From: Chloroflexota bacterium
GTDB lineage: Bacteria > Chloroflexota > UBA11872 > VXOZ01
Direction of reading: 5' to 3'
Assembly: GCA_965216245.1 (NCBI GenBank)
Contig: OZ244145.1
Span: 1,804,097 to 1,868,096, forward strand
DNA: 64,000 nt
Below, one piece after another: positions 3,526-19,746 of the stretch. The stretch's first letter is position 1. Each line of letters begins with the position of its first letter. A program made the translations under genes and the position numbers. The notes below the pieces were generated by a model that ran no database searches, was not told the DNA's origin, and saw only the letters and a list, made by a program, of their open reading frames with translations.

Positions 3526-3528
3526 ACC

Positions 3529-4599
3529 ATGAATGAACAGGAATTGACCTGCTGGTTGGAAAACCAATGGGAGCAGGTTCTATCGGCTTATGAAAGCGAT
3601 CCTGATCAGGAAATCGACCGTTTCATTGATTCATCCGTTGTTAGTATCCGGTATGCGATCTTGACCCAGCTACTTGGCAAACTTGCTGATCCAACTCGTG
3701 ACCTACTTTGTCTTCAAAGAGGTAAAAAGGATTCGGAGGTAGGGCTAGCTGGACGTTGGGACCCGAGAGGCTTCTGTACCCGCGTCGTGGTTCCTTGGAT
3801 TCAGAGACATCAAAGTGTGCTTGGAACAAGCGGTGACCCTTACGTAAGTAAGCCGCTCCGTCGCCCGCGGCTAGACCAGGGGATGGAGTCCCTTAATAAC
3901 CGCCAAGAGTGGAAAGCGATTGTCAGTTTCTTAGCTACATTGCAGGAGGATTCCGACCCGGCAATGGTCGAGAACGGAGTCCAAAGATGTCTAAAGAGCA
4001 TCGCACGTCGGCTAAGGGATCAGCAGGTAGACTATCCGATACCTATGCGTATCGGTTTGGACCGTCTCTGTGACATACTGGATCAATACCTAGCTTTAGC
4101 CAACGGTGGGTTGCGGCCTATGGTCGTGGCGACAGCACTGATGCAGACATTGGGACGGGCATACTCCCTCTTCCCAAGAGTCGAGAGCCAGGGCGTAAAC
4201 GAGGCAGATGCAGCAGCCGGGGTGCCCGGCGACGTATTGTGCTACGGAGAGGATGACGCACTTGCTCTAGCGGTCGAGGTGAAGGGACATGAGCTAACCC
4301 TCATTGAGGTTGAGTCCACGATAACGAAAGCGCGCTCCAGTCGTGTTACAAACACCCTCTTTGCGACCCCCGGCCTTGCCTCTGCTGACAGGGAAGCCAT
4401 AGAGGCGAGAATTACAGAGGAATTTGCACAGGGAAGCAACATCTATAAAAGTTCAATTCAATCGCTGGCTCGCAATTCATTCATGCTCCTCAAAGAAGAA
4501 TGGCGTGTGGAGTTTCTCTACGCAGTATGCTCAGAACTGGATGCCCGAAGCAGTCAACCCTCCGACCGACTTGCATTCGCTGAACTGCTAACCGCATGA
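3529..4599 (+). CDS. putative Type II restriction endonuclease partner of the Dam-like MTase
   Basis: Starts 3 nt after the MTase stop (operon-like). C-terminal segment GDVLCYGEDDALALAVEVKG fits a PD-x(n)-(D/E)-x-K nuclease core. No other recognisable domain. Confidence 0.5.
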   Translation: MNEQELTCWLENQWEQVLSAYESDPDQEIDRFIDSSVVSIRYAILTQLLGKLADPTRDLLCLQRGKKDSEVGLAGRWDPRGFCTRVVVPWIQRHQSVLGTSGDPYVSKPLRRPRLDQGMESLNNRQEWKAIVSFLATLQEDSDPAMVENGVQRCLKSIARRLRDQQVDYPIPMRIGLDRLCDILDQYLALANGGLRPMVVATALMQTLGRAYSLFPRVESQGVNEADAAAGVPGDVLCYGEDDALALAVEVKGHELTLIEVESTITKARSSRVTNTLFATPGLASADREAIEARITEEFAQGSNIYKSSIQSLARNSFMLLKEEWRVEFLYAVCSELDARSSQPSDRLAFAELLTA

Positions 4600-4724
4600 C
4601 TCTTTTCTGTTGTCGGCAGGTTTCACGACGCTGGTGATGGATTCTAGGTTGTCTGGCATTTCTACAGAGGCTGGATCCATCTCCGAACACTTTGCAGACT
4701 ACGTGCTGAGGGAGCCTCCGCAGA

Positions 4725-6773
4725 TCAAAGCAGTTCCCTTTTGAACGACTCCACCCATCTCCGTTGGTGGTGGGGGAGGCTGTTGAGGCGGACGTTTAGG
4801 TCAATGGAGACGTGGATGGCGTCGTGGGTGCTGCGGATGTTGGCGGAGGTGTCGATGTTGATAGCGCCGTCGGAGCGGGTGATGGTGCGGAAGTGTTGGC
4901 CGATGGCCGTAGTGTCCGCGGGGTTGCGGTTGTTAGCCCACACCTCCAGCTTGGACTCCATCTTGACGGTCATATCGGCGCTGGCCCGGCTCACGCCTAC
5001 GAGATGTAACCGCAGGCCGGTGCGGTCTCGCATCATGTCCTGAGTAATCTCCCAGGGAACGACGCGCGGCGATGCCTCCGGGTAGGTGCGTGGCGCGGCG
5101 GAAGACTCGTACGCCATCTCGTCGGGCGGCAGTTCTCCGGCGGGGGCGTCCCGCGTGGGTACAACCGGCAACTCCAGGTACGACTCACGTCCGCTGTCCC
5201 GGTACACTCGGTTCGTGCCGTTATAGGGAGTCGGCCACAGGTTGGGAAAGTCCGCGCTGCTTATAGAGAGCCGGATCCTGTGCCCTCGCTCGAACCGCCA
5301 CGCCGTAGCGTCCAGGTCGACGTGCAGTTCGTAGACCTCGCCCGGTTCCATAGGCTCCGGTTCAGTGAGCGAGTTGCGCCGCGTTCCGTTCAGCACGCCC
5401 ATTGTGACCTGCGCACTGGTACCGTCCGGCGCCACGTCTGAGAGCCGGGCTACAAACGCCATCACGGGCGCCGTGGAGCTGACGTGGAGCACGGCTTTGC
5501 CCATGCCGATGATCTCCAGCGGTTCGTCTAGTGGCGCGGAGGTGTAGTTCGTCGCGTAGACTTCGTCCACGCGCTGGTCGCTCGGTAGTCCAAAGGGCAC
5601 GCCTGCGCTCCACAGGCCGCTCGCAATACCCACGGACGGCCGGTATGCGTACTCCTCGTAGCCGCGGCGGGTCATGTCCGGGTTGTCCGGCGTAAGCTCG
5701 CCGCCGAGTTGGAGGCGGCGCGTACAACCGCCGGGGATGGGAAGCGTTGGCTCCGTACGCCAGTAGCCGGATGTATGGGTCCTGGAGGCGTCCGGCACGT
5801 CGAACGTTTGGACGTAGACGTTGACGGCCGGCTCGTCCATGATGCCGTTGTCTATCCCCTTCAGCCAGTAGTCGCACCACCGCACGGTGAGATGCTCCCG
5901 CGCCAAGGACGGACCGGGCGTTTCGCAGTCCGGGCCGGAGTGGTTCCAAGGGCCGATGAGCACCTTGCTCGGCGCGGTCAAGTGCTGCGCCGTCCTGAGC
6001 GGCGCGTTGCAGTAGCCGTCGCGCCAGCCGCCGATAAGCAGCGCCGAGGCCTTGATCTTGTGGTAGCGGTCCCGAATGCTGCCGGGCCGCCAATATTCCC
6101 CATCCGTCTGATTCGCGAGCCACGTGAGCAGATATGGATTGTTCTGCTCCAGGCGCTGCTCCCAAAGCTCGGCCCAACGGTCGCCGCTGTATTCGGGATA
6201 GGGCGGCATGGCGTTCATGCCTACCATGGAGCTGCCGTATGCGCCTATGTCGTAGTAACAGCGTAGGGCCCCGCCGCGGTAGTGACAGTCGTCCGTGTAC
6301 CTATCGTCGGTGAAATTCCAGGGGATGATGGTTTCCAGATGCGGCGGCGCCAAGGCAGCGACCTGCACACTGGTGAACCCGCCGTACGAGCCGCCGGTCA
6401 TTGCCACTTTGCCGTCGCACCAGTCCTGCGCGGCGATCCACTCGACCACGTCGTACCCGTCGCGAATTTCCACGGGGCGGTACTCGTCGTCGTTTGAGTC
6501 TTCGCTGGAGCCGGTGCCCCGGCAGTCGACGCGGGCGCCGACGTAGCCGTGCTGCGCCCAGTGGTGTTGCATCCCGGTGAGCGGCTCCTGGTCGTCCTTA
6601 CGGTACGGAATGTAGGTGAGGATCACGGGCCACGGGCCTTCCTCCGCCGGCACGTGAATGTCCAGCGCGAGCTTGGTACCGTCACGGGTGGGCGCCATGA
6701 TGTTCTTTACGAATCTGATGCCTGCCGCACTGACTGCCATTGGCCGGACGCCTGAGTAGGTCTGATCTGCCAT
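4725..6773 (-). CDS. CocE/NonD-family alpha/beta hydrolase (S15 X-Pro dipeptidyl-peptidase-like)
   Basis: GGSYGG nucleophile elbow and overall S15 architecture. The ORF track extends to 6962; start chosen at MADQ with a GGAG RBS. Confidence 0.8.
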   Translation of the reverse strand: MADQTYSGVRPMAVSAAGIRFVKNIMAPTRDGTKLALDIHVPAEEGPWPVILTYIPYRKDDQEPLTGMQHHWAQHGYVGARVDCRGTGSSEDSNDDEYRPVEIRDGYDVVEWIAAQDWCDGKVAMTGGSYGGFTSVQVAALAPPHLETIIPWNFTDDRYTDDCHYRGGALRCYYDIGAYGSSMVGMNAMPPYPEYSGDRWAELWEQRLEQNNPYLLTWLANQTDGEYWRPGSIRDRYHKIKASALLIGGWRDGYCNAPLRTAQHLTAPSKVLIGPWNHSGPDCETPGPSLAREHLTVRWCDYWLKGIDNGIMDEPAVNVYVQTFDVPDASRTHTSGYWRTEPTLPIPGGCTRRLQLGGELTPDNPDMTRRGYEEYAYRPSVGIASGLWSAGVPFGLPSDQRVDEVYATNYTSAPLDEPLEIIGMGKAVLHVSSTAPVMAFVARLSDVAPDGTSAQVTMGVLNGTRRNSLTEPEPMEPGEVYELHVDLDATAWRFERGHRIRLSISSADFPNLWPTPYNGTNRVYRDSGRESYLELPVVPTRDAPAGELPPDEMAYESSAAPRTYPEASPRVVPWEITQDMMRDRTGLRLHLVGVSRASADMTVKMESKLEVWANNRNPADTTAIGQHFRTITRSDGAINIDTSANIRSTHDAIHVSIDLNVRLNSLPHHQRRWVESFKRELL

Positions 6774-6886
6774 GCTAACTGCTCCCATCCAACTGAGTCC
6801 GTCTGGCGGAATACCGGCTTGAGGTCCCGGGTGACAAACTCGAGTATTCGTAACGCCCGCGCCACCGCGCTGTCTGCGAACCCGTC

Positions 6887-7459
6887 TTACTTTTCGCTTC
6901 CCTGACTCTCGTGCGCTTGGCAGAGCGGGCAGTGGCCGGGGGTGCTGACGTGGACGCCGCACAGAGTGCAGCGGTCCGACTCTTGCGCTTCTTCGCCAGA
7001 CAAACGAGCGAGGGCTTGCTGGCGAACGGCCGGATTCTCAATGAGGTTGATGGCTTGGCGCAGCCGTCTTTCGCGGTCGGCATCGTCGTCCGTGGCGGTC
7101 GCTTGGGGCGAAGCCTTCTGTGAGGGTGGGAGTTGTGTTCCAGTTGGAGAGCGGGGTGCGGGCCGCTGACCGCGGACGCGGAGTTCGAGTTTGGTGACGA
7201 GCGGACGCCCTAGTTTCGTATTTAGTTCACGTGTGAGTTGTGGCAGGCGCATGTGCAGTTCGTGTACGGCGGCGGAAGAGGGGGTCTGGATCGTCAATGT
7301 GCCCTGCTGGAAGCGGAGCGGACGAGCGTCTCGGGCATGGGCAGGGAGGCCCGCGGCGATGGTACGCCACGCGGCAAACACCGCCGACCGCATGAGCGGC
7401 TCGGAGATGCCAAGTTCGTCGATCATGCCCGGCAGCACGTCTTTAATCGCCTTGAACAT
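6887..7459 (-). CDS. dciA: DUF721/DciA-family protein with C-terminal Cys4 zinc ribbon
   Basis: N-terminal MFKAIKDVLPGMIDELGI...AAWRTIAG pattern typical of DUF721 proteins found beside recF/gyrB. C-terminal CTLCGVH...CPLC. Confidence 0.65.
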   Translation of the reverse strand: MFKAIKDVLPGMIDELGISEPLMRSAVFAAWRTIAAGLPAHARDARPLRFQQGTLTIQTPSSAAVHELHMRLPQLTRELNTKLGRPLVTKLELRVRGQRPAPRSPTGTQLPPSQKASPQATATDDDADRERRLRQAINLIENPAVRQQALARLSGEEAQESDRCTLCGVHVSTPGHCPLCQAHESQGSEK

Positions 7460-7929
7460 GCCGTATCCCTCCCTCCTCACAGCCTAGCACAGCCCGGCAA
7501 GAGTGCGCTCTATTGTGTTAATCCAATCAGGTTGAAAGTGATGCGCGGCATAGGGGATAGTGCACAAAACCACAATGGCGGCGAGAGAGACTTATGAGAG
7601 TGGCGATACGCATGCATTGTCCTTGCTCCCGGCAGAAGGTCAAATGTTCCGCCGAAGCTTCCTATGCCCTTGTAATTCGGGGCTAATAGGATTGGACTTA
7701 GATTGGGCAAGAGTGAGTTATCGGTCTCACCCATGCCTAGGCGGTCACTCAGGCTATCATTCTGAGGAGCCATTCAGCAGGCTTAGGATAATCTCCGCGA
7801 CGAAGAATCTAGAGTGGTAAGTTTTCTTGAATCCTCGCTTGGCTCGGAATTGTAGGTGTTGACTAATTCTTTGACAGAGTTTTCAATCCAGTTAGTGTCC
7901 TGGAGAGTTGAAGACGGTCAGTTCCGTCA

Positions 7930-7947
7930 TTCCGGCGAAAGCCGGAA
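7930..7947. repeat. REP-like GAAA-tetraloop hairpin (TTCCGGC-GAAA-GCCGGAA) within a ~60-bp repeat shared with 50551..50610
   Basis: Read directly from the sequence. The second copy, TTCCCGC-GAAA-GCGGGAA at 50555..50572, has a compensatory CG/GC swap. Confidence 0.6.
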
Positions 7948-8467
7948 TCCATCTTCAATGCACCCCCTAGACTCCGGCCCCTAATCAACCAGGGGGCAGG
8001 CTTTGCGCCGGAGTAGCGGATTTCGTGGCGCTTACCATGTTCGTCTTTGTTGCATGCGCTGTCACTGCTCGTTACAGAACCACCTACTAGGTAAGGCAGC
8101 CGATTGGTAGTTATTACTTCCTGCCGTTTCATGCTCCGACTTCGTCAACGAATTACCTGACACTTACAGGAATGACAAGAAGCGCATATTTATGAACGAT
8201 CAAGTCTAGGTCCACTAACTCCGTTGTAATTTAGACTTGCACTACGGACGAGGCATTGCGTATAATGGTTCGGGCCAAGGGTAATTATACCCATGGTCAT
8301 GTTTTTCATTTCTCTTGTCACGTTAAGTTCCCCGTTCTAAATTCCAGATTTCCGTTATACGAGCCGATTAATTCTACTACCTAAGGCCGGCTGTTCAGGT
8401 CGGTCTTGGAAATCAACTCTCTCTTCATCGCATCGTACTACTATCCGCTCTACAACGGAGACCCTTT

Positions 8468-9769
8468 GTGCGGCCTCTCCTCGCGTCTCTCTTTCTGCTG
8501 CTCCTTGTTGCTTTCTCTGCCACATCGGTACACGCCACAGACTGTCAGTTCGTGCTCGGCTTCGAGACTCTGCGCGACCTGATCGGTCACGACGTAGTTG
8601 GCGAGTGCCTGGAGAACGAGCACTACGAAGCCAACGGTGATGGACTGCAACAGACCACGGGCGGCTTACTGGTATGGCGCAAAGCAGATAACTGGACCGC
8701 TTTCACCGACGGCTACCGCACGTGGATTAACGGTCCCAACGGTCTTGAACAGCGACTAAACACCGAACGGTTCGAGTGGGAGTATGACTACGCGCCGGGC
8801 GGCGGCATCGCCACGCCGACGCCTACTCCCATGGAACTCAATCCCGAGCACATCCTCGTTCCCGTGCTAGAAGTGATGCGATCGACGCCAAGTGGTGAAG
8901 AGGCCTACCAGAACTTACTCCGATTGGGCGTCGGCATAACCTTTGGCGGCAATCCGCCGTGGGGAAAGTACATATTTGATGTGCCAAGCAATCGCATAGT
9001 GCTTTTCGGAAACTATGTACACGAGGCACCGGACACAATTGCCCATCTCGTTGCTGAGGCGACTGAGCTCGCAAAGTGGTTCCATGTACACGGCGAGCCA
9101 ACGACTCCCGAGGAATGCATCGAACGTAAGTATTTAGTCTTGACGTCACGGGAAATATGGTTGACAGAGTTCAACGGTCACTCTCCAGTGTCAGATGTGG
9201 AGAGGCGTTTGCGAGCGCAAGAATATGTGCATCACCGAATCCACCGCGATTCGGAATTCTGCCCTGCCGTGCCAAGAGCGTCTGCGCGAGATGCGGATAT
9301 TGCGCGAGCGCTTGAGACCATGAGCCAGACGGCGACCGGTAGGCGCGTACATGATTGGTTCGTAGAATCCGGTGTGAGTGCGTACTTTGATCAGATAGAA
9401 TACCGTGGCGGTGTCTACTCTCCAAGGAATAACTACATTGCAATCCACGAAGCCCACCGCAATAGCCCGGTGAACGCCGCCGCCTGGTTCGTGCACGAGA
9501 CCATTCATGCGATGACACACGACGAACCAGAGTCTCAGGAAGAGTGCTATAGGCAAGAAGAGCGTGCGTTTAGCTGGCAAGCCCAATGGTGGATGGAGTA
9601 CTTTGGCAATGGCGGGAGCGGGTTGCAGGATGAAGACTCTAAGTCACAGGACTCAATCTTGAGGGACTACCTCGGTGGAACGCTTCTCAACGCTATTCGG
9701 GGAACACGGGCCTACCAGGACTATTGTGGCGCTTACCACGCTGGCGACATACCCTTGCAAATGCATTGA
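8468..9769 (+). CDS. secreted modular protein: signal peptide, conserved Cys-containing N-domain, Pro/Thr linker, HExxH (putative zinc-metallopeptidase-like) C-domain
   Basis: GTG start with GGAG RBS and hydrophobic signal peptide. The N-domain is ~70% identical to that of ORF 17253. TPTPTP linker. HETIH motif plus downstream conserved E in the C-domain, which is homologous to ORF 21535. Confidence 0.65.
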   Translation: MRPLLASLFLLLLVAFSATSVHATDCQFVLGFETLRDLIGHDVVGECLENEHYEANGDGLQQTTGGLLVWRKADNWTAFTDGYRTWINGPNGLEQRLNTERFEWEYDYAPGGGIATPTPTPMELNPEHILVPVLEVMRSTPSGEEAYQNLLRLGVGITFGGNPPWGKYIFDVPSNRIVLFGNYVHEAPDTIAHLVAEATELAKWFHVHGEPTTPEECIERKYLVLTSREIWLTEFNGHSPVSDVERRLRAQEYVHHRIHRDSEFCPAVPRASARDADIARALETMSQTATGRRVHDWFVESGVSAYFDQIEYRGGVYSPRNNYIAIHEAHRNSPVNAAAWFVHETIHAMTHDEPESQEECYRQEERAFSWQAQWWMEYFGNGGSGLQDEDSKSQDSILRDYLGGTLLNAIRGTRAYQDYCGAYHAGDIPLQMH

Positions 9770-9939
9770 CTGCAGCGAAAGACACATTCTTAGTGGCTGT
9801 ACTGGACACTATTTCGCTGCAAGCTAGTTGTTTCGTGTAGCTTCTTACGGCGCACTTTTCCTGGGAGGGGGCCGCGGGAAAAGATGGTTGTATGACCTTG
9901 CTTCCGAGGGGAATTATATACGAAAGTAAACAGGGCTGC

Positions 9940-11529
9940 CTATAATGACCATACCGTTTGCGGCAATCCAGGCTGTGTCATAGGCTTGCCAGTGAATGGG
10001 TCTAACATAGGTGGCACATGCGGCCTACGCCGGTCAAAATAGTCTTGAATCGACCATAGTCCAACACGTGGGTATCGTTCTGCTCCCACCACAACATTGC
10101 CCATCCTAGCAACGTCGCTTTGTGCGCTTGGAGTAGAAACAGATTCTAGCGTGATAAACAGGCCAAGCGCGGCATCTTCCATACCTACCACGCCTATGAA
10201 GTCGCGTAATTGCGAGAGTGAGAAGTGTCCGCTTTTGACTTGCGCCAGCACTAGCCTTGACTTCGTATTGTCCGGCTCTACAAGCATCATGCCACGCCCG
10301 TCTATCCCGCCATCTCCAGTCTTTTTCTTGTTCGGCACAAGTCCAGGGACTAGATAAATGGCCCACGATTCGAAGTCAAAGCGGTTGAGTTCTGCAAGCC
10401 GTCTAGCTGAGGCAAGGTCTGCCGGAATGCCCTCAATATGCGCCGTCACACCTAATGGCTTCAAGCGATATTCCTGCACTAAGTCAATGGCAAATGACGA
10501 AATGTCTATTCCGGCCCATCGCCTACCTAATCGCTGCGCCGCGTCAACGGTAGTACCGCAACCTGCAAAAGGGTCAAGGACAAGATCACCAGGATTGCTG
10601 GATGCTTCGATGATGCGCTCTAGTAAGGCGCGTGGCTTTTGTGTGGGATAGCCTAGGCGCTCTTTGGCTTGTGAGTTCACTGGTGGAATGTCAATCCATA
10701 CATCGGTGGTTGGTTTCCCAGGTGTGTCTTCAAGGTAACGCTTATATCTAGGCATGTTGGTTCTTGTGAAGACTATCCGACCTTTGGCCATGAGATCGTC
10801 AATTCTGTCTTGATCCCATGCCCAATGACGCCCAGAAGGGGGATCAAGTAGCCTATTGCCAAACCTTCGAGCTGGTCCTGACCCAGACCCATGTGCGGCG
10901 ACAAGCTGATAACGTCTTCCATCTTCATCTACGAGTCTGTAGTGACTCTCAATGTAGCTCAGATCATGCGGTTGGTATTGAGGATTCCACTGCACCTTTC
11001 CGGTCTTAGAATAGTAAAGGATCGTATCGTGAACCGAATTGTAGTTGCTAGCTCCTCCGTGAGAAAGTGATCGCTGCCAAATGACCTCACGACGAAAGTT
11101 CCCATTTCCAAACACCGAGTCCATAACCGCTTTGAGGTAGTGTGAAGCGTAAGGATCGCAATGAAGATAGATACTGCCAGTAGGTTTCAAGAGACGCTGC
11201 ATTTCTGCAAGCCGTTCAGCCATATAGGTGAGGTAGGCAAGCATCCCCGACTCGCCAAGCATGAAATGTAAGCCGTGAATGACTTGGTGCGCAGGATGCG
11301 CTATGGCATTCAGGATTGCTTCGGTGCGCTCGGCGGCTTTGTCGTCCCAATGCCACGTATCGGTGAACGCCCGCATTTGTGCAGGCACGTTGTTCTCGGT
11401 GCCAAAGAGGATATTGTAGTCGGTGTTGGAGTTGAACGGGGGATCGAGATATATGAGGTCTACGCACTCGCTCGGCCACTTGCGCATCCAGTCAAGGCAA
11501 TCACCATAATAAAGTGTTTGCGGTGTCAT
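9940..11529 (-). CDS. beta-class (PF01555-like) DNA methyltransferase fused to a C-terminal Mrr-like restriction-endonuclease domain
   Basis: DPPF motif IV near the N-terminus, DPFAGCGTT motif I later (beta order). C-terminal GDGGIDG...AQVKS matches the Mrr catalytic-domain signature. Confidence 0.8.
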   Translation of the reverse strand: MTPQTLYYGDCLDWMRKWPSECVDLIYLDPPFNSNTDYNILFGTENNVPAQMRAFTDTWHWDDKAAERTEAILNAIAHPAHQVIHGLHFMLGESGMLAYLTYMAERLAEMQRLLKPTGSIYLHCDPYASHYLKAVMDSVFGNGNFRREVIWQRSLSHGGASNYNSVHDTILYYSKTGKVQWNPQYQPHDLSYIESHYRLVDEDGRRYQLVAAHGSGSGPARRFGNRLLDPPSGRHWAWDQDRIDDLMAKGRIVFTRTNMPRYKRYLEDTPGKPTTDVWIDIPPVNSQAKERLGYPTQKPRALLERIIEASSNPGDLVLDPFAGCGTTVDAAQRLGRRWAGIDISSFAIDLVQEYRLKPLGVTAHIEGIPADLASARRLAELNRFDFESWAIYLVPGLVPNKKKTGDGGIDGRGMMLVEPDNTKSRLVLAQVKSGHFSLSQLRDFIGVVGMEDAALGLFITLESVSTPSAQSDVARMGNVVVGAERYPRVGLWSIQDYFDRRRPHVPPMLDPFTGKPMTQPGLPQTVWSL

Positions 11530-11541
11530 GACTGTTCCCGC

Positions 11542-11694
11542 CTACTTTTTCTTCTTCGGCGGCGGACTCTTTAGCACAGCGCGGGCCACGTCCTTGACCG
11601 GCGCATCAATGCGCGGTGGCATTGTCTTAGTGACAGGTCTCCCCACCTTGCCTTTGCCTAATGCTCTAGTCGCTTTGGGCTTGGGATTATCCAT
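11542..11694 (-). CDS. conserved 50-aa basic micro-ORF (KGKVGRPVTK AT-hook-like), first gene of the MTase operon
   Basis: Found by hand-translation; it is below the ORF-track size cutoff. It is 80% identical to the micro-ORF at 19608..19739 in the same position of copy 2. Stop lies 12 nt before the MTase ATG. Confidence 0.45.
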   Translation of the reverse strand: MDNPKPKATRALGKGKVGRPVTKTMPPRIDAPVKDVARAVLKSPPPKKKK

Positions 11695-11710
11695 AGTGGC
11701 GGCCTTTCGC

Positions 11711-11723
11711 GGGGGGGGGGGGG
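11711..11723. repeat. G13 homopolymer tract in the leader of the micro-ORF/MTase operon (C13 on the coding strand)
   Basis: Read directly from the sequence; the orthologous position in copy 2 is C5 (GGTAACCCCCGGCG). Confidence 0.9.
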
Positions 11724-11742
11724 TTACCTATTTACACTGTAA

Positions 11743-11754
11743 ACAGTATACTGT
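11743..11754. promoter_or_regulatory. perfect 12-bp palindrome ACAGTATACTGT in the divergent promoter region of the cargo module
   Basis: Seen in the sequence. In copy 2 (19547..19559) the corresponding dyad ACAGTATACTGTT has two mismatches at this position, but a near-identical shifted perfect 12-bp palindrome is present. Candidate operator. Confidence 0.4.
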
Positions 11755-11865
11755 ATTTGTAAGCGTTCTTTTGAAGAGTAACACGGGAATGAGAAACACA
11801 AAGGAGAAAGGCAATGCGAACCAAAGAGGAGACCTACCTGACAGCCATGGTAGGAGTGAGGGGGT

Positions 11866-12417
11866 ATGGCTGAATGGCTAGACGATGGACGCGTAATAGT
11901 TGGCCTATTTAGCGCCGGAGCGATACTGGTTGTCGCTCTCGTTGGCGGAGTTATCAAGCTTTGCCTTTGGATTGGCAGCACTGGCACCGATGTGAACAAT
12001 CTAGAAAAGTCCGCCGGAGAAGATCGGTCTACCTTCAAGGACATTGCAGGGGAGATCAAGAAGGATATAGATATAATTAGTGCAGATATCAAAGGCATCC
12101 TTGGCAGACTCTCGCCTTTAGACCCTCTTGTCCAAAAGGCCAGCCCGCTTCAATTGACTGAAACTGGCAAGAAAACCTCCCAGGCACTAAAGGCTAGAGA
12201 ATGGGCAGAAGAACTAGCACCCGGACTGCATGACCAACTGAAAGACAAAGAGGACTTCGAAGTCGATGCATTTTGCCAGAAGTACGTTCTCCGAAAACTG
12301 GCTCCGGCAACGGAAACACGTGTGTTGCGACGCGCCTACGAAACTGGCACTGAAGAGGCAGATATCAGAAAAGTGCTAGCAGTCGTCCTTAGAGACGAAT
12401 TGCTATCGTACCGTTAG
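11866..12417 (+). CDS. small membrane-anchored coiled-coil protein of the cargo module (unknown function)
   Basis: N-terminal TM helix followed by a coiled-coil region. The C-terminal 60 aa (EDFEVD.FCQ...RKVL.VVLRDELLSYR) are conserved with ORF 18911..19444. Confidence 0.6.
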   Translation: MAEWLDDGRVIVGLFSAGAILVVALVGGVIKLCLWIGSTGTDVNNLEKSAGEDRSTFKDIAGEIKKDIDIISADIKGILGRLSPLDPLVQKASPLQLTETGKKTSQALKAREWAEELAPGLHDQLKDKEDFEVDAFCQKYVLRKLAPATETRVLRRAYETGTEEADIRKVLAVVLRDELLSYR

Positions 12418-12428
12418 GCGGATGTGTG

Positions 12429-12470
12429 AAAGACAGAAGCCCCCGCGTCATTGCGGGGGCTTCTGTCTTT
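12429..12470. terminator. 18-bp-stem hairpin between the convergent small-protein gene and the transposase
   Basis: AAAGACAGAAGCCCCCGC-GTCATT-GCGGGGGCTTCTGTCTTT. The copy-2 equivalent has compensatory A/T changes that preserve the stem. Confidence 0.6.
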
Positions 12471-13409
12471 CTACGCAATCAAGTCTTGGTACCGCAGGCG
12501 CTTGCCCTGCATGTTCTGCACCATGTGGCGCATTTGGTCTATCGTGTTCGCGGGCCGGTCATTGTGCCGTCCGGAAAACTCACTCACGTAGCGGTCTAGG
12601 TGCTTCACGCTCATGTGGTGGTAGGTTCCCACGTAGCCGCGCTTCAAGAGAGACCAGAACGATTCGATGCCGTTGGTGTGAATTTGCTCACGTACGTACT
12701 CGCGGGCGGTGTGCCTGACTGTCTCATGCTCTACGTTGCCCAATCCCCGATATCCGCCATGATCGTCGGTAATGACTTTGGAGCCAGCTTTCACCTTATC
12801 GTTGACAAAGCCCTCTAGCGTCTCGCTGTCCGTGGCGGGGATGGAGATTGCAGACACTTTGTTGGACTCTCGCTCTTTGGCACCGATCACTGGTGTCTTG
12901 CCTACCGGCCCGCGCCCCGCGTTCAGCTTCTTGGATGCGTGTTTGTTGCGTTCCTTGCCGCCCATATACGTCTCATCAATCTCAGTGGTTCCAGCAAACG
13001 GCTCAATCTCATTGTCCCACGCCCTGCGGATTCTGTGAGCCATGTGCCAAGCGGTCTTTTGTGTCACATTGATATCGCGGTGCAATTTCATGCTGGAAGT
13101 ACCCTTGACGCCTGTAGTCATGAGATACATCGCCATCGCCCACTTGCGGTAGCCGATCTTGCTGGACTGCATCACCGTGCCGGTCTTGACCGAAAAGAAC
13201 TTGCGGCAATCGGAGCAATGGTATGGCATGGTAGGATGGTTGCCTTTGGCTCCCACGCGCTCGCCATTGCAGTATGCGCAGCGCAAACCGTCCGGCCAAC
13301 GTTCGCTAACAAACCACTGTTCGGCAGTTTCGTCATTCGGGAACATCTCGTGCAATTCGAGCAAGGATATACCCTTGCGGTAGTGCTTGCCAGGTGCTTT
13401 ATTCGCCAT
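12471..13409 (-). CDS. IS1595-family (ISXO2-like) transposase
   Basis: N-terminal zinc ribbon (C-x2-C...C-x2-C) and DDE domain layout typical of IS1595. 97% identical to ORF 17907..18857. Confidence 0.9.
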   Translation of the reverse strand: MANKAPGKHYRKGISLLELHEMFPNDETAEQWFVSERWPDGLRCAYCNGERVGAKGNHPTMPYHCSDCRKFFSVKTGTVMQSSKIGYRKWAMAMYLMTTGVKGTSSMKLHRDINVTQKTAWHMAHRIRRAWDNEIEPFAGTTEIDETYMGGKERNKHASKKLNAGRGPVGKTPVIGAKERESNKVSAISIPATDSETLEGFVNDKVKAGSKVITDDHGGYRGLGNVEHETVRHTAREYVREQIHTNGIESFWSLLKRGYVGTYHHMSVKHLDRYVSEFSGRHNDRPANTIDQMRHMVQNMQGKRLRYQDLIA

Positions 13410-13515
13410 CGTTACCCTCGTTTGCTGCTCAATTCCTACTCTCTAATTATAGCAGCAAAGTAAACATATGGCAAGGGATTTCAGGTACTTTCGTTTACTT
13501 ACGTATATAATTCCC

Positions 13516-13797
13516 CTTCCGAGGGAGCCAGTTGACACGTTCAACAAGCTTTGGGAGGATGAAGCAGAGGTAGTATTGTATGGATGGCCTATCGGACTGG
13601 GTTCAAGTGATTGTCGCTATCGTGGCGCTCTTGGGTCTACTTTGGCGATTGAAACCCGCATCTCAGGATTAGAATCACGCTTAGGTGAGCGCATTGCCCA
13701 TCTTGAAGCAAGTTCCGCTGGCTTGTCGAGTCGGCTTTCGCGGATTGAAAACGTGCTGGACCAGTTCTTGATGCGGACTGGCAGGGGGGAGCAATGA
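13516..13797 (+). pseudogene. 5'-clipped small coiled-coil protein gene; its original start and first 5 codons remain at 9892..9908 on the other side of transposon copy 1
   Basis: Joining 9892..9908 to 13524.. with one TSD copy removed gives a continuous ORF MTLLPREPVD... The ORF-track entry 13468..13797 is a fusion that starts inside the transposon IR. Confidence 0.5.
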
Positions 13798-14129
13798 AAG
13801 TACCCAGTGGGGATAGCATGCTGGAAGAGGTCACCGGAAATATCATAGAGCTTTGCCAGCATAATGATGTTCCTCATACAACTGGTATCATTCACAGCGA
13901 TGGCAAGAACATTGACTTCGAGATATATGGGGTGCCTGAGAATCCTAAGCACCAGAATGCTCGTGATGCATACGCTGCGAAGCGTGTCGTTACCTTAGTA
14001 GGTTTATTGCTGAGTTATTTGAAAGAGTATGAATCTGTGCGCACATACGTAACAGCCGGGAGAATCATGGCTGAATGTTCCGGAGAGCCGACGACTTACC
14101 TGGATGTCTCAGAAGTGCGTGTACTGTAG
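13794..14129 (+). CDS. hypothetical protein (111 aa)
   Basis: ATGA start/stop overlap with the upstream small gene suggests translational coupling. No recognisable domain. Confidence 0.45.
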   Translation: MKVPSGDSMLEEVTGNIIELCQHNDVPHTTGIIHSDGKNIDFEIYGVPENPKHQNARDAYAAKRVVTLVGLLLSYLKEYESVRTYVTAGRIMAECSGEPTTYLDVSEVRVL

Positions 14130-14658
14130 TCCCTGCACAGACTCGTAGTCTGGGGTAGCATAGTGGGCGCAGGAAATCTGGATTTGGTTGTCCTTGCGGC
14201 AAGGCCGTCTTGGTGGTCGACATTGGCCGAGTTGTTGCTAGGCCGGTAACATTGTGGATCTCTGGCAGGAACAGGTTGTTTCTGTCGCAAGTCTTTGCGG
14301 TGCCATATTCTCCCTTTCCCTCTCATATTCAGGCTGTCTTCTCTTGGCTACTCTTAGGCGCATTGTTCCGCAGATAAGCTAACCGCTTTATTTGGTGGCT
14401 TTAGCCAGACCTACTCAGTCTTGAACTACTGATTGCGCGGAAGTTCTACGAAACTATGTGCTCTTTGCAAGATATTGCGGACGCAGTGCGCCCCGCTAAG
14501 AAGAAGAACTTTGGATGGTTTTCCACCCTAGGCGCCAGGAAATGTGTCGAATTGCATCATATCTTCTGGGTCCTGAACGCGTATTAGCGGCTCGCCTAGG
14601 CGTAGAATGCTTGGGCGGGTGCTCTTGAGAGTGTGGGGGCAGTCCCAGGTAGAGTTGC

Positions 14659-15846
14659 TCATTGAGGGAGAGTCACCGTATCGTCCGCGACACGCAGGAT
14701 TTGTGCCGAATCCAGGACGTTCTGCGAGAATTGCCGGAGGTCGGAGGTGGTGGCGAACACTTGGACGTTGGGAGCAAGGGACGCGAGGACGTGTTGGCGG
14801 CGCTGGGCATCCAGTTCGGAGAGAAAATCATCCAGGAGAATGACCGGCCACTCGCCGGACTCCGCGTGGAGCAGGGAGACCTCAGTGAGCTTGAGGGTGA
14901 GGGCTGCCAGCCGTTGTTCGCCGCGCGAGCCGAAGGTAGCCAGAGGGTGGTCGCTGCGTAGGAAGGTAAGATCGTCACGATGCGGGCCCACGACCGTGAC
15001 CGCTTGAGCGCGCTCGCGGGGCGCCTGCTCCTCAAGGGCGGCTGAAAACGCTGACTGAATCTCTGCCAGCCAGGCTTGCGGTAAAGCGCTGCTGCGAAGC
15101 TCGGCGGGGAGGGGCGGAGTCGCTGGGAGCGGCACGGTCGATTCGTAGCGGAGGCGCAGGTCGGTAGCAGATCCTATGAGCGTGTCGTAGCGGGTGGAGA
15201 GTGGTTCCGCTACGTGTTCAACGAAGACCACGCGGAGGGCAGTAATCGATGCCCCCAAAGTCGTAAGCTCTCGGTTCCATGCTGCGAGCTGGCGCTGGTC
15301 GCGGGTCGATCCGTCGCGCAGGGCGCGCAACAGTGCGTTTCGCTCCGCCATCACGTGCTCGTAGCTTTGCAGCATGCGTAAGTAGCGCGAATCAATGCGG
15401 CTGAGCAGGTAGTCGAGATAGCGCCGCCGGCTACTGGGTGGACCGTCCACCAACGCAATATCATGGGGCGTAAACAGGACAACGTGCAGGTGTTGCAGGA
15501 GGCTCGAGGCGCGACGGGGCACGCCGCCTATGCGGATGCGCTTGCTAAACGCGGAGTCTTGTTGTTCGGCGGCCCAGATCACCTCTAGCGAGGTTTCATG
15601 ATCCCCGGCCCCTACTTCTCCGGCCACCCGTGTGTAGGGGCGCTCCGGATCGGGCGCGAAGCTGCGCATTTCCATATCGGAACGGGCCCGGAAGGAACGG
15701 CCTGTGGCTAGGCAGTGAATGGCTTCAAGGATATTCGATTTCCCAGCGCCGTTAGGGCCCGTGAAGATCGTCAACCCCTGCGCGAGCGAGAGCGTGGCGG
15801 AGCGATAGTTACGGAAGTTGGTGAGGGAAAGCGCGCTGAGATACAC
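14659..15846 (-). CDS. recF: DNA replication and repair protein RecF
   Basis: Walker A GPNGAGKSN near the N-terminus and SMC-like architecture; matches RecF length and motifs. Confidence 0.9.
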   Translation of the reverse strand: MYLSALSLTNFRNYRSATLSLAQGLTIFTGPNGAGKSNILEAIHCLATGRSFRARSDMEMRSFAPDPERPYTRVAGEVGAGDHETSLEVIWAAEQQDSAFSKRIRIGGVPRRASSLLQHLHVVLFTPHDIALVDGPPSSRRRYLDYLLSRIDSRYLRMLQSYEHVMAERNALLRALRDGSTRDQRQLAAWNRELTTLGASITALRVVFVEHVAEPLSTRYDTLIGSATDLRLRYESTVPLPATPPLPAELRSSALPQAWLAEIQSAFSAALEEQAPRERAQAVTVVGPHRDDLTFLRSDHPLATFGSRGEQRLAALTLKLTEVSLLHAESGEWPVILLDDFLSELDAQRRQHVLASLAPNVQVFATTSDLRQFSQNVLDSAQILRVADDTVTLPQ

Positions 15847-15938
15847 GGTGCGTCCTTCTGACTGCTGCAGGGTGAATTGGGCAATGTTTCACGTGAAACA
15901 TACCGGGTTGCCGGTGCGGCAAAGCCGGCGCAGACCGG

Positions 15939-16868
15939 CTAACCCTCGCGCCAGGGCGGCACGTCCCAGGTATTCACCCACTCCCATTCCCACTCAATGC
16001 GCTTCTCCGGTAACTTGAGCGCATATTCGATGCCGGCCGTAAAGGGGAGCACCTGGGTCTGCGGGCCGACTTTCTCGCGGTAATACTCAATGAACGCACC
16101 GACGTCACTTGCGTTTGGCGGCCAGTGCCCCTCCGGTACCGGGTCCGACTTTCGGTCGGTGCGGTAGTGCACGGGGATCAAGGCATACGGCCGTATGTAG
16201 TCCACGAAATCCTCGAGTTCGGTCGATTGGTGTTCCGCACTCGTCGGCGAGAGGCCGAGCTTCATGTGAATGGCAAAGTCCACCCGCCCGCGCAACGCCT
16301 GCATCGCCGGATAGGCAGCCCACGCGTCGCCAATGTGTAGAAAAGAGAGATTCAAGGCTTTGTGGGTAACCAGGAATCCTAGGTTTGGCAGATCAGGGCG
16401 CTGGTTCTCGCCGCTCTCGATGGTTTCCACGTGAAGCGCGCCAAGATCAACCTCGGTTGAGCCGGGAAACTCCCGCACGTGAACCGTGCCCGCCCACGGC
16501 CTGCCCCGCTGCATTTCGTTCTGATGCTTTGGATACATCACCTGTATCTTCTCCGCCGGCACGTGCTTCGTAATCGGCAAGTCGCGTGAAAACGCGGCGT
16601 CGCCATACTTCTCGTCAATCGGCTCGTCCGGCCACAAAGCGCCCGGCGGCACGAAGAGCGTCTTAAAACGCTCGCCCTGGCACAGCTTGCGGAGAGTCTT
16701 CGGATGGCAGTGGTCGAAGTGCTCGTGACTGATGAAGATGTAATCGTAGATGGGCTGCGCGTTGTCGAGGTTTTCGCCAAAGAGATACGGGTCGAAGGCG
16801 ATGTTCACATCGCCAAAGCGCACGTCAAATGCCCCACACCCCCACCACCGCAGCCAAATTCGTTCCAT
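15939..16868 (-). CDS. MBL-fold metallo-hydrolase
   Basis: HEHFDH (HxHxDH) motif. Confidence 0.75.
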   Translation of the reverse strand: MERIWLRWWGCGAFDVRFGDVNIAFDPYLFGENLDNAQPIYDYIFISHEHFDHCHPKTLRKLCQGERFKTLFVPPGALWPDEPIDEKYGDAAFSRDLPITKHVPAEKIQVMYPKHQNEMQRGRPWAGTVHVREFPGSTEVDLGALHVETIESGENQRPDLPNLGFLVTHKALNLSFLHIGDAWAAYPAMQALRGRVDFAIHMKLGLSPTSAEHQSTELEDFVDYIRPYALIPVHYRTDRKSDPVPEGHWPPNASDVGAFIEYYREKVGPQTQVLPFTAGIEYALKLPEKRIEWEWEWVNTWDVPPWREG

Positions 16869-16974
16869 GTGTTTTCCTCTGTCCCACTGTGCTCGCTGCT
16901 TTACGAACGGACTTAGTAGTTCTCGGCTTGACTAACTAAACGTAGTTTAGCCAATATGTTTAGGAGGTAAAGCC

Positions 16975-17145
16975 ATGAACGTACTAACCATAGCAGACCG
17001 TTTTCCAAATGGGCAATCCTGTGTCGAGATTCTTGAGCGGGTCAAGTGGCAGGGCGTGCCAAGGTGCCCATTCTGTGATAGCGAGGACGTAGAGCGCAAG
17101 CATGAAAACGAGATCGTCGGCCGGTGGAACCGCTGCAATCATTAA
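16975..17145 (+). pseudogene. remnant of an IS1595-family transposase N-terminal zinc-ribbon domain (56 codons)
   Basis: Hand-translated: MNVLTIADRFPNGQSCVEILERVKWQGVPRCPFCDSEDVERKHENEIVGRWNRCNH. It parallels the FPNDETAEQWF..WPDGLRCAYC N-terminus of the intact transposases, then terminates. Confidence 0.45.
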
Positions 17146-17252
17146 TCTCCCCATCCAGTCCAGGAAAATCGGAGGATTAATGGCTTAATTTTGGCCCTTC
17201 GGACTCTGCTAAACTAGGCCTTGTCACACCTCAACCAATATGTGGGTGCCTT

Positions 17253-17812
17253 ATGTACCGCATACCTGTACTTTTCTTGTTCCTGTTCATCGCATTGTTT
17301 CCCACCACCGCATCCGCCGCCGACTGCGAGTTCGTGCACGGCTTTGCGACCCTGCGCAATCTCATCGGTCACGAGATTGTGGGCGAATGCCTGGAGAACG
17401 AGCACTACAACGCCATCGGCGATAGCAACCAACAAACCACGGGCGGCCTACTGGCCTGGCGCAAGGTAGATAACTGGACTGCCTTCACTGACGGCTATCG
17501 CACCTGGATCAACGGGCCGAACGGGCTGGAACAACGCCTAAACACCGAACGCTTCGAGTGGGAGCAAGACCCGCCTGCGCCAGCTCCTGAGCCGACACCG
17601 GTTCCAACGCCGGCACCCGTAGCTGTCGAGTGCCCGGATGGGGACACCGTGCGGGGACTAGTGTCTGAGTCTCTGCAAATTAGCGGCATGCGCGGAGACC
17701 TTTTGAAGAAGTGGATGTACCAGCTAAGCGTGGGGATCGACAGCGTCGAATGGGCTTGTGCGTGGTTCTACTACTTGGGTTATGGGCCGGATAACAAGTG
17801 GGTCTTTGTAAA
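17253..17812 (+). pseudogene. 5' portion of a secreted modular HExxH-protein gene interrupted by transposon copy 2
   Basis: Signal peptide plus N-domain paralogous to 8468..9769. The reading frame continues exactly into 21520.. once copy 2 and one TSD are removed. Confidence 0.65.
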
Positions 17813-17906
17813 GGGAATTATATACGAAAGTAAACGAAACTGCCAAGAATCCCTTGACCGCTGTTTACTTTACTGCTATAATTAGAGAGTAGGAATTGAG
17901 CAGCAA

Positions 17907-18857
17907 ATGAGGGCAACGATGGCAAAGAAGGCACCTGGCAAGCACTACCGCAAGGGCATATCCCTGATTGAATTGTACGAGATGTTCCCGAACGACGAAA
18001 CTGCCGAACAGTGGTTCGTTAGTGAGCGCTGGCCCGATGGACTGCGCTGTGCCTACTGCAATGGTGAGCGCGTGGGAGCTAAGGGTAATCACCCGACAAT
18101 GCCCTACCACTGTGGCGATTGCCGCAAGTTTTTCTCGGTCAAGACCGGCACGGTGATGCAGTCCAGCAAGATCGGCTACCGCAAGTGGGCGATGGCGATG
18201 TATCTCATGACTACAGGCGTCAAGGGTACTTCCAGCATGAAGCTACACCGTGATATCAACGTGACGCAAAAGACCGCTTGGCACATGGCACACAGAATCC
18301 GTAGAGCGTGGGACAATGAGATTGAGCCGTTTGCTGGAACCACAGAGATTGACGAAACCTATATGGGCGGCAAGGAACGCAACAAGCACGCATCCAAGAA
18401 GCTGAACGCGGGGCGCGGGCCGGTAGGCAAGACACCAGTGATCGGTGCCAAAGAGCGAGAGTCCAACAAAGTGTCTGCAATCCCCATCCCCGCCACGGAC
18501 AGCGAGACGCTAGAGGGCTTTGTCAACGATAAGGTGAAAGCTGGCTCCAAAGTCATTACCGACGATCATGGCGGATATCGGGGCTTGGGCAACGTAGAGC
18601 ATGAGACAGTCAGGCACTCCGCCCGCGAGTACGTACGTGAGCAAATTCACACCAACGGGATAGAGTCGTTCTGGTCTCTCTTGAAGCGCGGCTACGTGGG
18701 AACGTACCATCACATGAGCGTAAAGCACTTAGACCGCTACGTTAGCGAGTTTGCAGGACGGCACAACGACCGACCGTCAAACACGATAGACCAAATGCGC
18801 CACATGGTGCAGAACATGCAGGGCAAGCGACTGCGCTACCAGGACTTGATTGCGTAG
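17907..18857 (+). CDS. IS1595-family (ISXO2-like) transposase
   Basis: 97% identical to ORF 12471..13409. Preceded by a 9-bp-stem inverted repeat (TTTGCTGCT..AGCAGCAAA) with a TATAAT in the loop. Confidence 0.9.
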   Translation: MRATMAKKAPGKHYRKGISLIELYEMFPNDETAEQWFVSERWPDGLRCAYCNGERVGAKGNHPTMPYHCGDCRKFFSVKTGTVMQSSKIGYRKWAMAMYLMTTGVKGTSSMKLHRDINVTQKTAWHMAHRIRRAWDNEIEPFAGTTEIDETYMGGKERNKHASKKLNAGRGPVGKTPVIGAKERESNKVSAIPIPATDSETLEGFVNDKVKAGSKVITDDHGGYRGLGNVEHETVRHSAREYVREQIHTNGIESFWSLLKRGYVGTYHHMSVKHLDRYVSEFAGRHNDRPSNTIDQMRHMVQNMQGKRLRYQDLIA

Positions 18858-18899
18858 AATGACAGAAGCCCCCGCGTCATTGCGGGGGCTTCTGTCATT
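18858..18899. terminator. 18-bp-stem hairpin between transposase and small membrane-protein gene (copy 2)
   Basis: AATGACAGAAGCCCCCGC-GTCATT-GCGGGGGCTTCTGTCATT. Confidence 0.6.
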
Positions 18900-18910
18900 C
18901 ACACATCCGC

Positions 18911-19444: not shown

Positions 19445-19607
19445 ATCCCCTCGCTCCTACCCTGGCTGTCAGGTAGGTCTCCTCTTTGATTCGCATTGCC
19501 TTTCTCCTTTGTTTTTCTCATGCCCGTGTTCCTCCTCACAAAACGCCTACAAATACAGTATACTGTTTACGGTGTAAAGAGGTAACCCCCGGCGAAAGGC
19601 GCGAGCA

Positions 19608-19739
19608 ATGGACAAGCCAAAAGCGACTAGCAAAGGCAAGGTGGGGAGACCAGTCACCAAGACCATGCCGCCGCGCATAGATGCGCCGGTCAAAGACGTG
19701 GCCCGCGTTGTGCTCAAGGCTCCGCCGCCGAAGAAGTAG
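19608..19739 (+). CDS. conserved 43-aa basic micro-ORF upstream of the MTase (copy 2)
   Basis: Hand-translated: MDKPKATSKGKVGRPVTKTMPPRIDAPVKDVARVVLKAPPPKK. The stop lies 7 nt before the MTase ATG. Confidence 0.45.
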   Translation: MDKPKATSKGKVGRPVTKTMPPRIDAPVKDVARVVLKAPPPKK

Positions 19740-19746
19740 CCAAGAA

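Follow-up and report, generated by a model that had tools for sequence, protein, structure and literature searches.

What kind of mobile unit joins a transposase, a DNA methyltransferase (MTase) and a nuclease within a few kilobases, and could it act as a restriction-modification (R-M) system in its own right? The question is raised by a 64,000-nucleotide stretch of contig OZ244145.1 (the window), part of a metagenome-assembled genome (MAG) of a Chloroflexota bacterium of 3.695 Mb, in which two inverted IS1595-family elements are located, copy 1 at 9909-13515 and copy 2 at 17813-21519. Each copy carries four genes, encoding a DDE transposase, a membrane coiled-coil protein, a basic protein from a very short open reading frame (micro-ORF) and an MTase-nuclease fusion. 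Judged by its sequence, each copy is an autonomous IS1595-family transporter insertion sequence (tIS), and the cargo is best explained as a self-mobile, single-chain R-M unit resembling Type IIC enzymes, a reading to which we give a probability of roughly 0.58. Below, W1 and W2 denote copies 1 and 2 in the window, and L001-L038 the further loci recovered.

The methyltransferase-nuclease fusions

The two fusion genes are organised as follows.

9940-11529, minus strand: MTase-Mrr gene of copy 1, 529 amino acids (aa); MTase at residues 1 to about 355, target-recognition domain (TRD) at about residues 142-290, C-terminal Mrr_cat domain of the PD-QxK type
19747-20988, plus strand: MTase-HNH gene of copy 2; TRD at about residues 140-246, C-terminal HNH domain with CxxC, D365-H366, N380 and CxxCN

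All of their domains exceed the Pfam cutoffs. The copy 1 product matches PF01555 (N6_N4_Mtase) at E 4e-48 over residues 23-352 and PF04471 (Mrr_cat) with 26.5 bits, against a cutoff of 21, over residues 399-479, and its nuclease head carries E387, D406/D410 and Q430-x-K432. The copy 2 product combines PF01555 (E 5e-47) with PF01844 (HNH, E 3e-12). Because an N-terminal DPPF (motif IV) is followed by a central variable region and then by FAGCGTT (motif I), both MTases are assigned to the beta class on their motif order; from DPPF, the specificity is presumably that of an N6-adenine MTase. No separate MTase or nuclease gene was found among the ORFs of either element. An earlier, sequence-only reading of this DNA had described a micro-ORF, a beta-class MTase continued in the same polypeptide by an Mrr-type (copy 1) or HNH (copy 2) nuclease domain, and a divergent small transmembrane (TM) protein, the whole forming a mobile unit. 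All of this was borne out: the ORFs have the same layout in both copies, PF01555 and the motif order agree with the class, PF04471 and PF01844 identify the heads with their catalytic residues kept, both domains lie in one ORF in each copy, and the unit is bounded by inverted repeats and target duplications.

Word-indexed searches (E <= 1e-10) returned at least 8000 matches for each type, and the best 120 of each were inspected. Nearly all of these best Mrr-type matches are full-length (about 460-640 aa, about 50-72% identity), and all carry PF01555, with Mrr_cat also on record for about a third; the best HNH-type matches are near-full-length, with PF01555 and HNH in all. Where the relatives have a database name at all, it is only 'DNA methyltransferase'. 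In alignments of 117 Mrr-type and 118 HNH-type full-length sequences, both MTase lobes and the MTase motifs are highly conserved, and the residues of the heads are retained in at least 90% of sequences (F-E387, D406, D410 and Q430-V-K432 in the Mrr type; C350, C353, D365-H366, H377, N380, C385 and C388-N389 in the HNH type). Mean column identity is 0.36-0.5 in a central block that spans about residues 150-285 of the Mrr-type and 150-240 of the HNH-type proteins. The length variation among homologs also falls into this block, which is a target-recognition domain undergoing exchange.

The sequence-only reading had also supposed that one MTase carries exchangeable nuclease heads, and this part did not hold. 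Since the MTase cores of the Mrr-type and HNH-type families share just 39-45% identity, the two versions are distinct full-length lineages and not one MTase with alternative heads, and what is exchanged between elements is the TRD or the whole gene.

Boundaries and nature of the carrier

The features that define the two elements are listed below.

9901-9908 and 13516-13523: 8-bp target-site duplication (TSD) of copy 1, CTTCCGAG, read directly from the flanks
9909-9931, plus strand: terminal inverted repeat (TIR) of copy 1, cargo end, GGGAATTATATACGAAAGTAAAC; 22 of 23 positions match 13493-13515
12471-13409, minus strand: transposase of copy 1, IS1595-family DDE enzyme of 312 aa with an N-terminal zinc ribbon
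13493-13515, minus strand: TIR of copy 1, transposase end, paired with 9909-9931
17805-17812 and 21520-21527: 8-bp TSD of copy 2, TTTGTAAA
17813-17835, plus strand: TIR of copy 2, transposase end, paired with 21497-21519
17907-18857, plus strand: transposase of copy 2, a 316-aa ORF, 89% identical in DNA to that of copy 1
21497-21519, minus strand: TIR of copy 2, cargo end, paired with 17813-17835

Read from the ends of both copies, the TIR is 23 nt long with the consensus GGGAATTATATAC(G/C)(A/T)AAGTAAAC (TIR sequence AATTATATA); the element ends are AT-rich, and the window contains the 12-mer core of the TIR four times, where 0.04 occurrences would be expected. A target duplication of 8 bp is what insertion of an IS1595-family element gives, as is known from ISfinder. 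The copy 1 transposase matches PF12762 (DDE_Tnp_IS1595) at E 1.7e-38, PF12760 weakly, and the NCBIfam model NF033547 (transpos_IS1595) with 192 bits against a cutoff of 75. Copy 2 interrupts a host gene, the pieces of which (17253-17812 and 21528-22254) rejoin in frame to encode a protein of about 428 aa. The assignment to the tIS class is made because of the TIRs, the TSDs (8 bp in both copies and in L034), the split host gene that rejoins in frame, the transposase family (an IS1595/ISXO2-type zinc-ribbon DDE enzyme) and the position of the passenger genes between the TIRs.

Mosaic exchange among related elements

W1 and W2 are 84-89% identical in DNA in three places, namely in the transposase, in the TM gene at its 3' end, and in the micro-ORF together with the region preceding it, with additional short matches at the outer ends, whereas their MTase cores are only 39% identical, so that the entire MTase-nuclease gene, and not the head alone, differs between the copies. 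The related elements are likewise mosaics on an 84-91% identical backbone, in which the TRD, the TM gene or the whole MTase-nuclease gene has been exchanged, and the nuclease head was not found exchanged alone among them. L001 has an intact micro-ORF, TM gene and transposase without an MTase, L027 has the transposase, micro-ORF and MTase-Mrr gene without a TM gene, and L031 combines a truncated transposase with TM, micro-ORF and MTase-HNH genes. L034 is a complete 4.4-kb element with the target duplication CTTAGATT, and it is joined by L027, L035, L037, L038 and L004 as further complete copies with their own TSD or TIR pair. A metagenome scan with the transposase gave a single locus.

The comparison of W1 with L027 points to exchange of the recognition domain. 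The two are 84-87% identical in the micro-ORF, in both MTase lobes (the N-lobe and the motif I lobe), in the Mrr head and in the TIR, and the match is lost between about residues 142 and 290, which is the TRD; in keeping with this, identity is 96% in the Mrr head and 61% in the MTase part. Between W2 and L031 the match is likewise lost at the TRD (about residues 140-246). In both pairs the TRD alone has been replaced in genes otherwise 84-89% identical in DNA. The MTase-Mrr of L034 is 94-95% identical to that of copy 1, and its TM protein is about 40% identical to that of either window copy. Homology between W1 and W2 breaks exactly at the micro-ORF stop codon (11551 = 19736), as it does in L001; this shared breakpoint suggests that the promoter and micro-ORF region form a constant platform ahead of a variable cargo slot.

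Linkage of the fusion gene with the transposase

An IS1595 transposase lies in the same TIR-bounded unit as the fusion gene, or adjacent to it, in 11 of 13 metagenomic and genomic MTase-nuclease loci inspected (W1, W2, L004, L027, L028, L030, L031, L034, L035, L037 and L038), a fraction that is no population estimate, since the sampled loci are the closest relatives and are biased to this transposon lineage. The stop codon of the transposase and the start of the MTase-HNH gene overlap in L035 and L038, and in L037 the stop stands 2 nt before the start of the MTase-Mrr gene; each of these three elements, 2.9-3.9 kb in size, has its own TIR pair. The fusion gene also occurs alone, without a transposase, in L029, L036, Mesorhizobium pMLa and a Microbacterium plasmid (plasmids of cultured bacteria), in the last case beside zeta and Fic/VbhA toxin-antitoxin genes.

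In L028 two TIR-like sequences (GGGCTTATATAC / GTATATAAGCCC) lie 8.5 kb apart (1144-9666), and between them are an MTase-Mrr gene, an IS1595 transposase, a DDE_Tnp_1 transposase and fragments of transposases; the region may represent a related element that is larger, nested or decayed.

The micro-ORF and its control region

The micro-ORF is placed directly ahead of the fusion gene in both copies, and several candidate control features lie around it and between the other genes.

11542-11694, minus strand: micro-ORF of copy 1, 50 aa, basic (KGKVGRPVTK...DVARAVLK...PPPKKKK)
11711-11723, minus strand: run of 13 C, 2 nt upstream of the ribosome-binding site of the copy 1 micro-ORF
11719-11767: divergent control region between micro-ORF and TM gene, with adjacent palindromes ACAGTATACTGT and TTTACAgTGTAAA
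12428-12471: perfect 44-nt palindrome between the convergent TM and transposase genes; copy 2 equivalent at 18857-18900
13446-13474, minus strand: promoter-like site upstream of the transposase, TTGCCA-17-TATAAT with TG, 11 of 12 matches, a consensus match only
19608-19739, plus strand: micro-ORF of copy 2, 43 aa, with its stop 7 nt ahead of the MTase ATG

In copy 1 the micro-ORF has GAAAGG before its ATG, and its stop stands 12 nt ahead of the MTase ATG. Conserved versions are present in six elements (W1, W2, L001, L027, L031 and L034), and in the five copies that could be aligned automatically the substitutions are mostly synonymous (pS 0.295, pN 0.063, pN/pS 0.21); it is evidently a real gene. 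No family match, helix-turn-helix (HTH) included, was found in Pfam, NCBIfam, PADLOC or PHROGs. In the more distant elements L035 and L038, whose transposase shows 62% identity, a gene downstream of the MTase specifies a comparable small basic protein, KKPRGRPPLPMPEQIPDTPENVARLL...KPKK compared with KGKVGRPVTKTMPPRIDAPVKDVARAVLK..PPKKK in the window. It contains the canonical AT-hook core P-R-G-R-P (PRGRPP) and is 32% identical to the window protein over about 40 residues; homology is probable, the resemblance being suggestive and not statistically secure.

Since the micro-ORF was not found in IS1595 elements that carry the TM gene only, it tracks the MTase-nuclease cargo; upstream of the unrelated MTase-nuclease genes of L028, L029 and L030 it is absent. 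Its fusion to the MTase in the longer HNH homologs was considered and ruled out, as their extra length is TRD and there is no N-terminal extension. The micro-protein could be a DNA-binding regulator that acts at an AT-rich operator or at the element ends, or its gene could be a coupling leader ending in PPPKKK. In L004, a distant AT-rich element with a transposase 42% identical, a 42-aa ORF ending in ...KPVVKNPKKK (6504-6632, plus strand) lies between the TM gene and the MTase-HNH gene, and resembles the window micro-ORF just in its position and lysine-rich tail.

The palindromes at 11719-11767 are conserved in W1, W2, L001 and L031, and the segment is a putative control region. At the position of the C13 run copy 2, L001 and L031 hold 4-6 C; the run could be a slipped-strand tract for phase variation of the MTase-nuclease operon or a homopolymer error of long-read sequencing. 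The 44-nt palindrome is probably a bidirectional terminator.

The membrane coiled-coil protein

The fourth gene of each copy is transcribed divergently from the micro-ORF.

11866-12417, plus strand: TM protein of copy 1, 183 aa, with an N-terminal TM helix, a variable coiled coil and a conserved C-terminal domain
18911-19444, minus strand: TM protein of copy 2, 177 aa, 42% identical to the copy 1 protein

The C-terminal domain is about 95 aa long, all-alpha, ends in ...VVLRDELLSYR and was modelled by AF2 with a pLDDT of 94.7; structure comparison of the predicted domain gave no fold match. Between W1 and W2 the DNA of the gene is conserved just at the first few codons and over the 3' part of about 170 nt (the last 57 codons or so). 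An initial word-indexed search returned the query alone; an exhaustive profile search retrieved 1301 cluster representatives (50% identity clusters) at E <= 1e-3, of which 744 remain at E <= 1e-10. The members share the N-terminal TM helix followed by positive residues, because of which the bulk of the protein is probably cytoplasmic, then a coiled coil of variable length, often with tandem repeats, and the domain pattern SPLxLT..G...WA..LAP...FE[VI]D.FC..YV...AYE.G...VL.VVLRDELL. The protein has no Pfam, NCBIfam, PADLOC or PHROG family, and no match in the plasmid, phage and IMG/VR collections searched.

The family was located at 25 genome loci in Chloroflexota, Acidobacteriota, Latescibacterota, Gemmatimonadota, Acidimicrobiia and Arenicellales. 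Four of them are TIR-bounded IS1595 elements (L004, L006, L008 and L026), the last three without an MTase, and at nearly all the others the gene stands alone among housekeeping genes with no flanking TIRs. All-against-all clustering of the neighbours at 27 loci gave two recurrent ones: the IS1595 transposase, present at 8 loci, and an unannotated protein, present at 5. A conserved partner was looked for and rejected, the immediate neighbours being mostly housekeeping enzymes.

Conversely, L027, L035, L037 and L038 carry an MTase-nuclease gene and no TM gene. Because the TM gene occurs without the MTase and fusion elements occur without the TM gene, the protein is best regarded as a recurrent, hypervariable and independent IS1595 passenger with no obligate MTase partner. 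The sequence-only reading had counted it, with the micro-ORF, as one of two conserved accessory proteins of the fusion, which is not supported for the TM protein; the micro-ORF does accompany the MTase-bearing elements.

Two further arrangements of the gene were observed. In Acidobacteriota and Aminicenantes MAGs (L022 and L024, both on OZ242374.1, and L025) it belongs to a repeated block that also contains two small ORFs and an unannotated one of about 850 aa, and homologs of the 850-aa ORF also flank it in L007 and L018; the block may be another mobile context or contain a partner, although these ORFs were naively called in high-GC DNA and may be wrong. In L013 two divergent paralogs of the family are placed side by side on one MAG contig (4439-5071, minus strand, and 5977-6471, plus strand).

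Comparison with known systems

The carrier belongs to a class described for the IS1595 and IS66 families in bioRxiv 10.1101/2021.05.26.445724 and PMC11891212, the latter citing Siguier, Gagnevin and Chandler 2009. It shares with that class a single zinc-ribbon DDE transposase, short TIRs, 8-bp TSDs and passengers inside IS-like ends. The IS1595 passengers given as an example in these papers are transcription regulators, and MTase passengers are cited there for IS1380 (PMC11891212; bioRxiv 10.1101/2021.05.26.445724). In the literature searched we found no MTase-nuclease fusion, micro-ORF or TM protein of this kind as IS1595 cargo, and no description of beta-class MTase-Mrr or MTase-HNH fusions. 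R-M units with inverted repeats and 8-bp duplications, transposon-like in appearance, have been reported (PMC2853133).

Type IIC enzymes hold both activities in one chain, and the majority, with a single nuclease site each, cleave as transient dimers on DNA with several sites (PMC4081073); a regime in which the monomer methylates and the dimer or higher oligomer restricts has been proposed as built-in regulation (PMC12707154). Both window copies combine endonuclease and MTase in one polypeptide (PF01555 with PF04471, and PF01555 with PF01844). The closest characterised layout is that of BtgZI, with an N-terminal MTase, a C-terminal PD-QxK nuclease (Q for E) and no helicase or translocase (PMC4081073). 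Copy 1 has this arrangement, and copy 2 has HNH at the same end; the replacement of PD-(D/E)xK by HNH in related proteins is a known theme (PMC12707154). However, the MTase of BtgZI is alpha-class and those of the window are beta-class (PF01555) with a central TRD; the likeness described here is one of layout.

Other R-M classes are more distant. MmeI, Eco57I and BpuSI, representing Type IIG/IIC/IIL, likewise have a single chain, one specificity module and exchange of recognition domains, and some need no separate methylase, but their order is an N-terminal PD-(D/E)xK nuclease, a gamma-class MTase (NPPY) and a C-terminal TRD (PMC4081073), whereas the window fusions have DPPF ... TRD ... FxGxG followed by the nuclease. 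With Type III Mod subunits (EcoP15I Mod, 4zcf) the fusions share a beta-class MTase with a central variable TRD, and EcoP15I Mod and the PADLOC MTase_III model match the query, but neither element contains or adjoins an ORF for Res or a helicase. LlaGI, of Type ISP, is a single-chain R-M enzyme with an Mrr-family nuclease motif (PMC2790908), but the window elements have no helicase or translocase domain. The Type IV enzymes EcoKMrr, TagI and VcaMI place the same cleavage modules (Mrr_cat PD-QxK or HNH) on readers of modified DNA (wH, SRA, EVE; PMC12707154), whereas the partner of the cleavage domain here is an N-terminal MTase with intact motifs. To the regulators of C-protein-controlled R-M systems the micro-ORF, which has no HTH match, is analogous in position only.

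In PADLOC-DB v2 the MTases match only the generic MTase_II, MTase_III and orphan-MTase models, and the TM and micro-ORF proteins match none. The earlier remark that the unit was not recognised as a named system is accurate in that none of the passengers matches a named multi-gene system, and goes too far in that the architecture fits Type IIC and mirrors BtgZI, and the carrier fits the tIS class. The finding falls within known categories and requires no new one.

Possible function

The sequence shows a zinc-ribbon DDE transposase that acts on the 23-nt AT-rich ends and gives 8-bp target duplications, and between these ends a single-chain enzyme in which the central TRD of the beta-class MTase sets the recognised sequence and the C-terminal head is PD-QxK (Mrr_cat) or HNH. 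In the proposed mechanism this fusion would be a Type IIC-like R-M enzyme. A monomer would methylate host sites; on DNA with several unmodified sites the single-site heads of neighbouring molecules might pair transiently and cut. Cutting would defend the host and penalise loss of the element, so that the transposon persists, and the transposon would in turn spread the enzyme. Recombination between copies would swap TRDs or whole MTase-nuclease genes on the same backbone and so create new specificities. The small basic AT-hook-like protein would be a DNA-binding or expression-control partner of the adjoining fusion gene, and the membrane coiled-coil protein a separate passenger that varies independently. 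This explanation is preferred because the motifs and catalytic residues are at least 90% conserved, the TRD is variable and can be replaced alone, and no separate MTase or nuclease gene is present.

Several points weigh against it. The database names are all merely those of methyltransferases, and for every member methylation and cleavage are predicted from sequence. A fusion whose two activities decay together is a poor post-segregational killer, and in the characterised Type IIC/IIG enzymes the MTase is gamma-class and the nuclease N-terminal, which makes the analogy one across MTase classes. The tight operonic link with the transposase could indicate a role in transposition instead, and the 11 of 13 association comes from a sample biased to this lineage. 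On plasmids of cultured bacteria, no full-length HNH version was found.

Among the alternatives, the fusion might be an orphan MTase whose nuclease-fold domain no longer restricts and serves as a DNA-binding or regulatory module, for instance in epigenetic regulation or in protecting mobile DNA from host restriction. The uniform annotation as a methyltransferase by all sources would agree with this, as would the lack of a partner nuclease or second MTase and the plasmid-borne relatives, which could be anti-restriction methylases. It is nevertheless unlikely: the catalytic residues of both heads (E...D...QxK; DH...N with Cys4) show at least 90% conservation across more than 100 relatives of each type, which would not be expected of a mere binding module, and TRD diversification is typical of restriction specificity and not of housekeeping methylation.

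A wider version of the preferred R-M explanation, comparably improbable, would make the IS1595 backbone a dedicated vehicle and diversification platform for one-protein R-M, with transposase, micro-protein and fusion functionally integrated and the membrane protein as a new exclusion or defence factor on the same vehicle. Here the micro-protein could bind the AT-rich ends or operator and time nuclease expression after a jump, and methylation encoded by the element could gate transposition.

Still less likely is a three-component defence with the MTase-nuclease as its effector, the micro-protein as its regulator and the membrane protein as a sensor or executor. The trio does recur in the order TM gene, divergent micro-ORF and MTase-nuclease gene in W1, W2, L031 and L034, its genes share a divergent control region with palindromes, and the TM gene and TRD are both hypervariable on a conserved backbone, as conflict genes would be. 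However, the TM gene is found in MTase-free IS1595 elements and, at most of its genome loci, as a lone gene among housekeeping genes, four loci carry the fusion without it, PADLOC recognises neither small protein, and in L034 an MTase-Mrr 94-95% like that of copy 1 accompanies a TM allele of 39% identity, so that the two do not co-vary.

Least likely of all is that the fusion serves the transposon, its methylation timing or limiting transposition, or its nuclease aiding excision, second-strand cleavage or spread-promoting breaks in a TnsA-like or homing-like manner: the very tight linkage, in which the stop codon of one gene overlaps the start of the next in L035 and L038, would suit such a helper, and restriction-fold nucleases do assist DDE transposases elsewhere, as TnsA does in Tn7, but the element ends are conserved whereas the TRDs, which direct enzyme binding, are hypervariable, two unrelated nuclease folds replace each other, IS1595 elements need no such genes in order to transpose, and the fusion has relatives that stand alone on plasmids and chromosomes with no transposase (L029, L036, L032 and L033).

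Neighbouring sequences

The host gene split by copy 2 is a paralog of an intact gene of 433 aa at 8468-9769, which adjoins copy 1. Both paralogs have a hydrophobic, signal-peptide-like N-terminus and an HExxH motif (HETIH / HEIYH), with a faint PHROG hint of a metalloprotease and no Pfam or NCBIfam family; their N-terminal regions are 78-82% identical in DNA (8489-8788 compared with 17271-17570). Between the inverted tIS copies lies about 4.3 kb of host DNA (13516-17812), including recF (14659-15846) and an MBL-fold hydrolase gene (15939-16868), which formally gives a layout that resembles a composite transposon or might be prone to inversion. A 56-aa ORF at 16975-17145 (plus strand) resembles the N-terminal zinc ribbon of IS1595 transposases (pairwise E 1e-5 with copy 1) and probably represents what is left of a further IS1595 element. 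In a sister genome (L030) the syntenic place is occupied by a different IS1595 transposase, 33% identical, which lies beside another allele of the MTase-HNH gene, the MBL-fold gene and recF. An Rfam scan of 9000-22500 gave no RNA family.

Significance

The interest of these elements lies in the compact combination of a transposase with an R-M unit, the exchange of TRD cassettes, an uncharacterised enzyme family and an unannotated membrane-protein family. The last is sizeable, with its 1301 clusters, and has a confidently predicted fold without a known match. The large beta-class MTase-Mrr and MTase-HNH families, with their swappable recognition domains, could be a rich source of new specificities. 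If the fusions are active, elements of 2.9-3.7 kb, consisting of a transposase and a one-gene R-M system, would be about the smallest autonomous mobile R-M units and would be direct evidence that R-M systems are self-mobile, as has long been argued.

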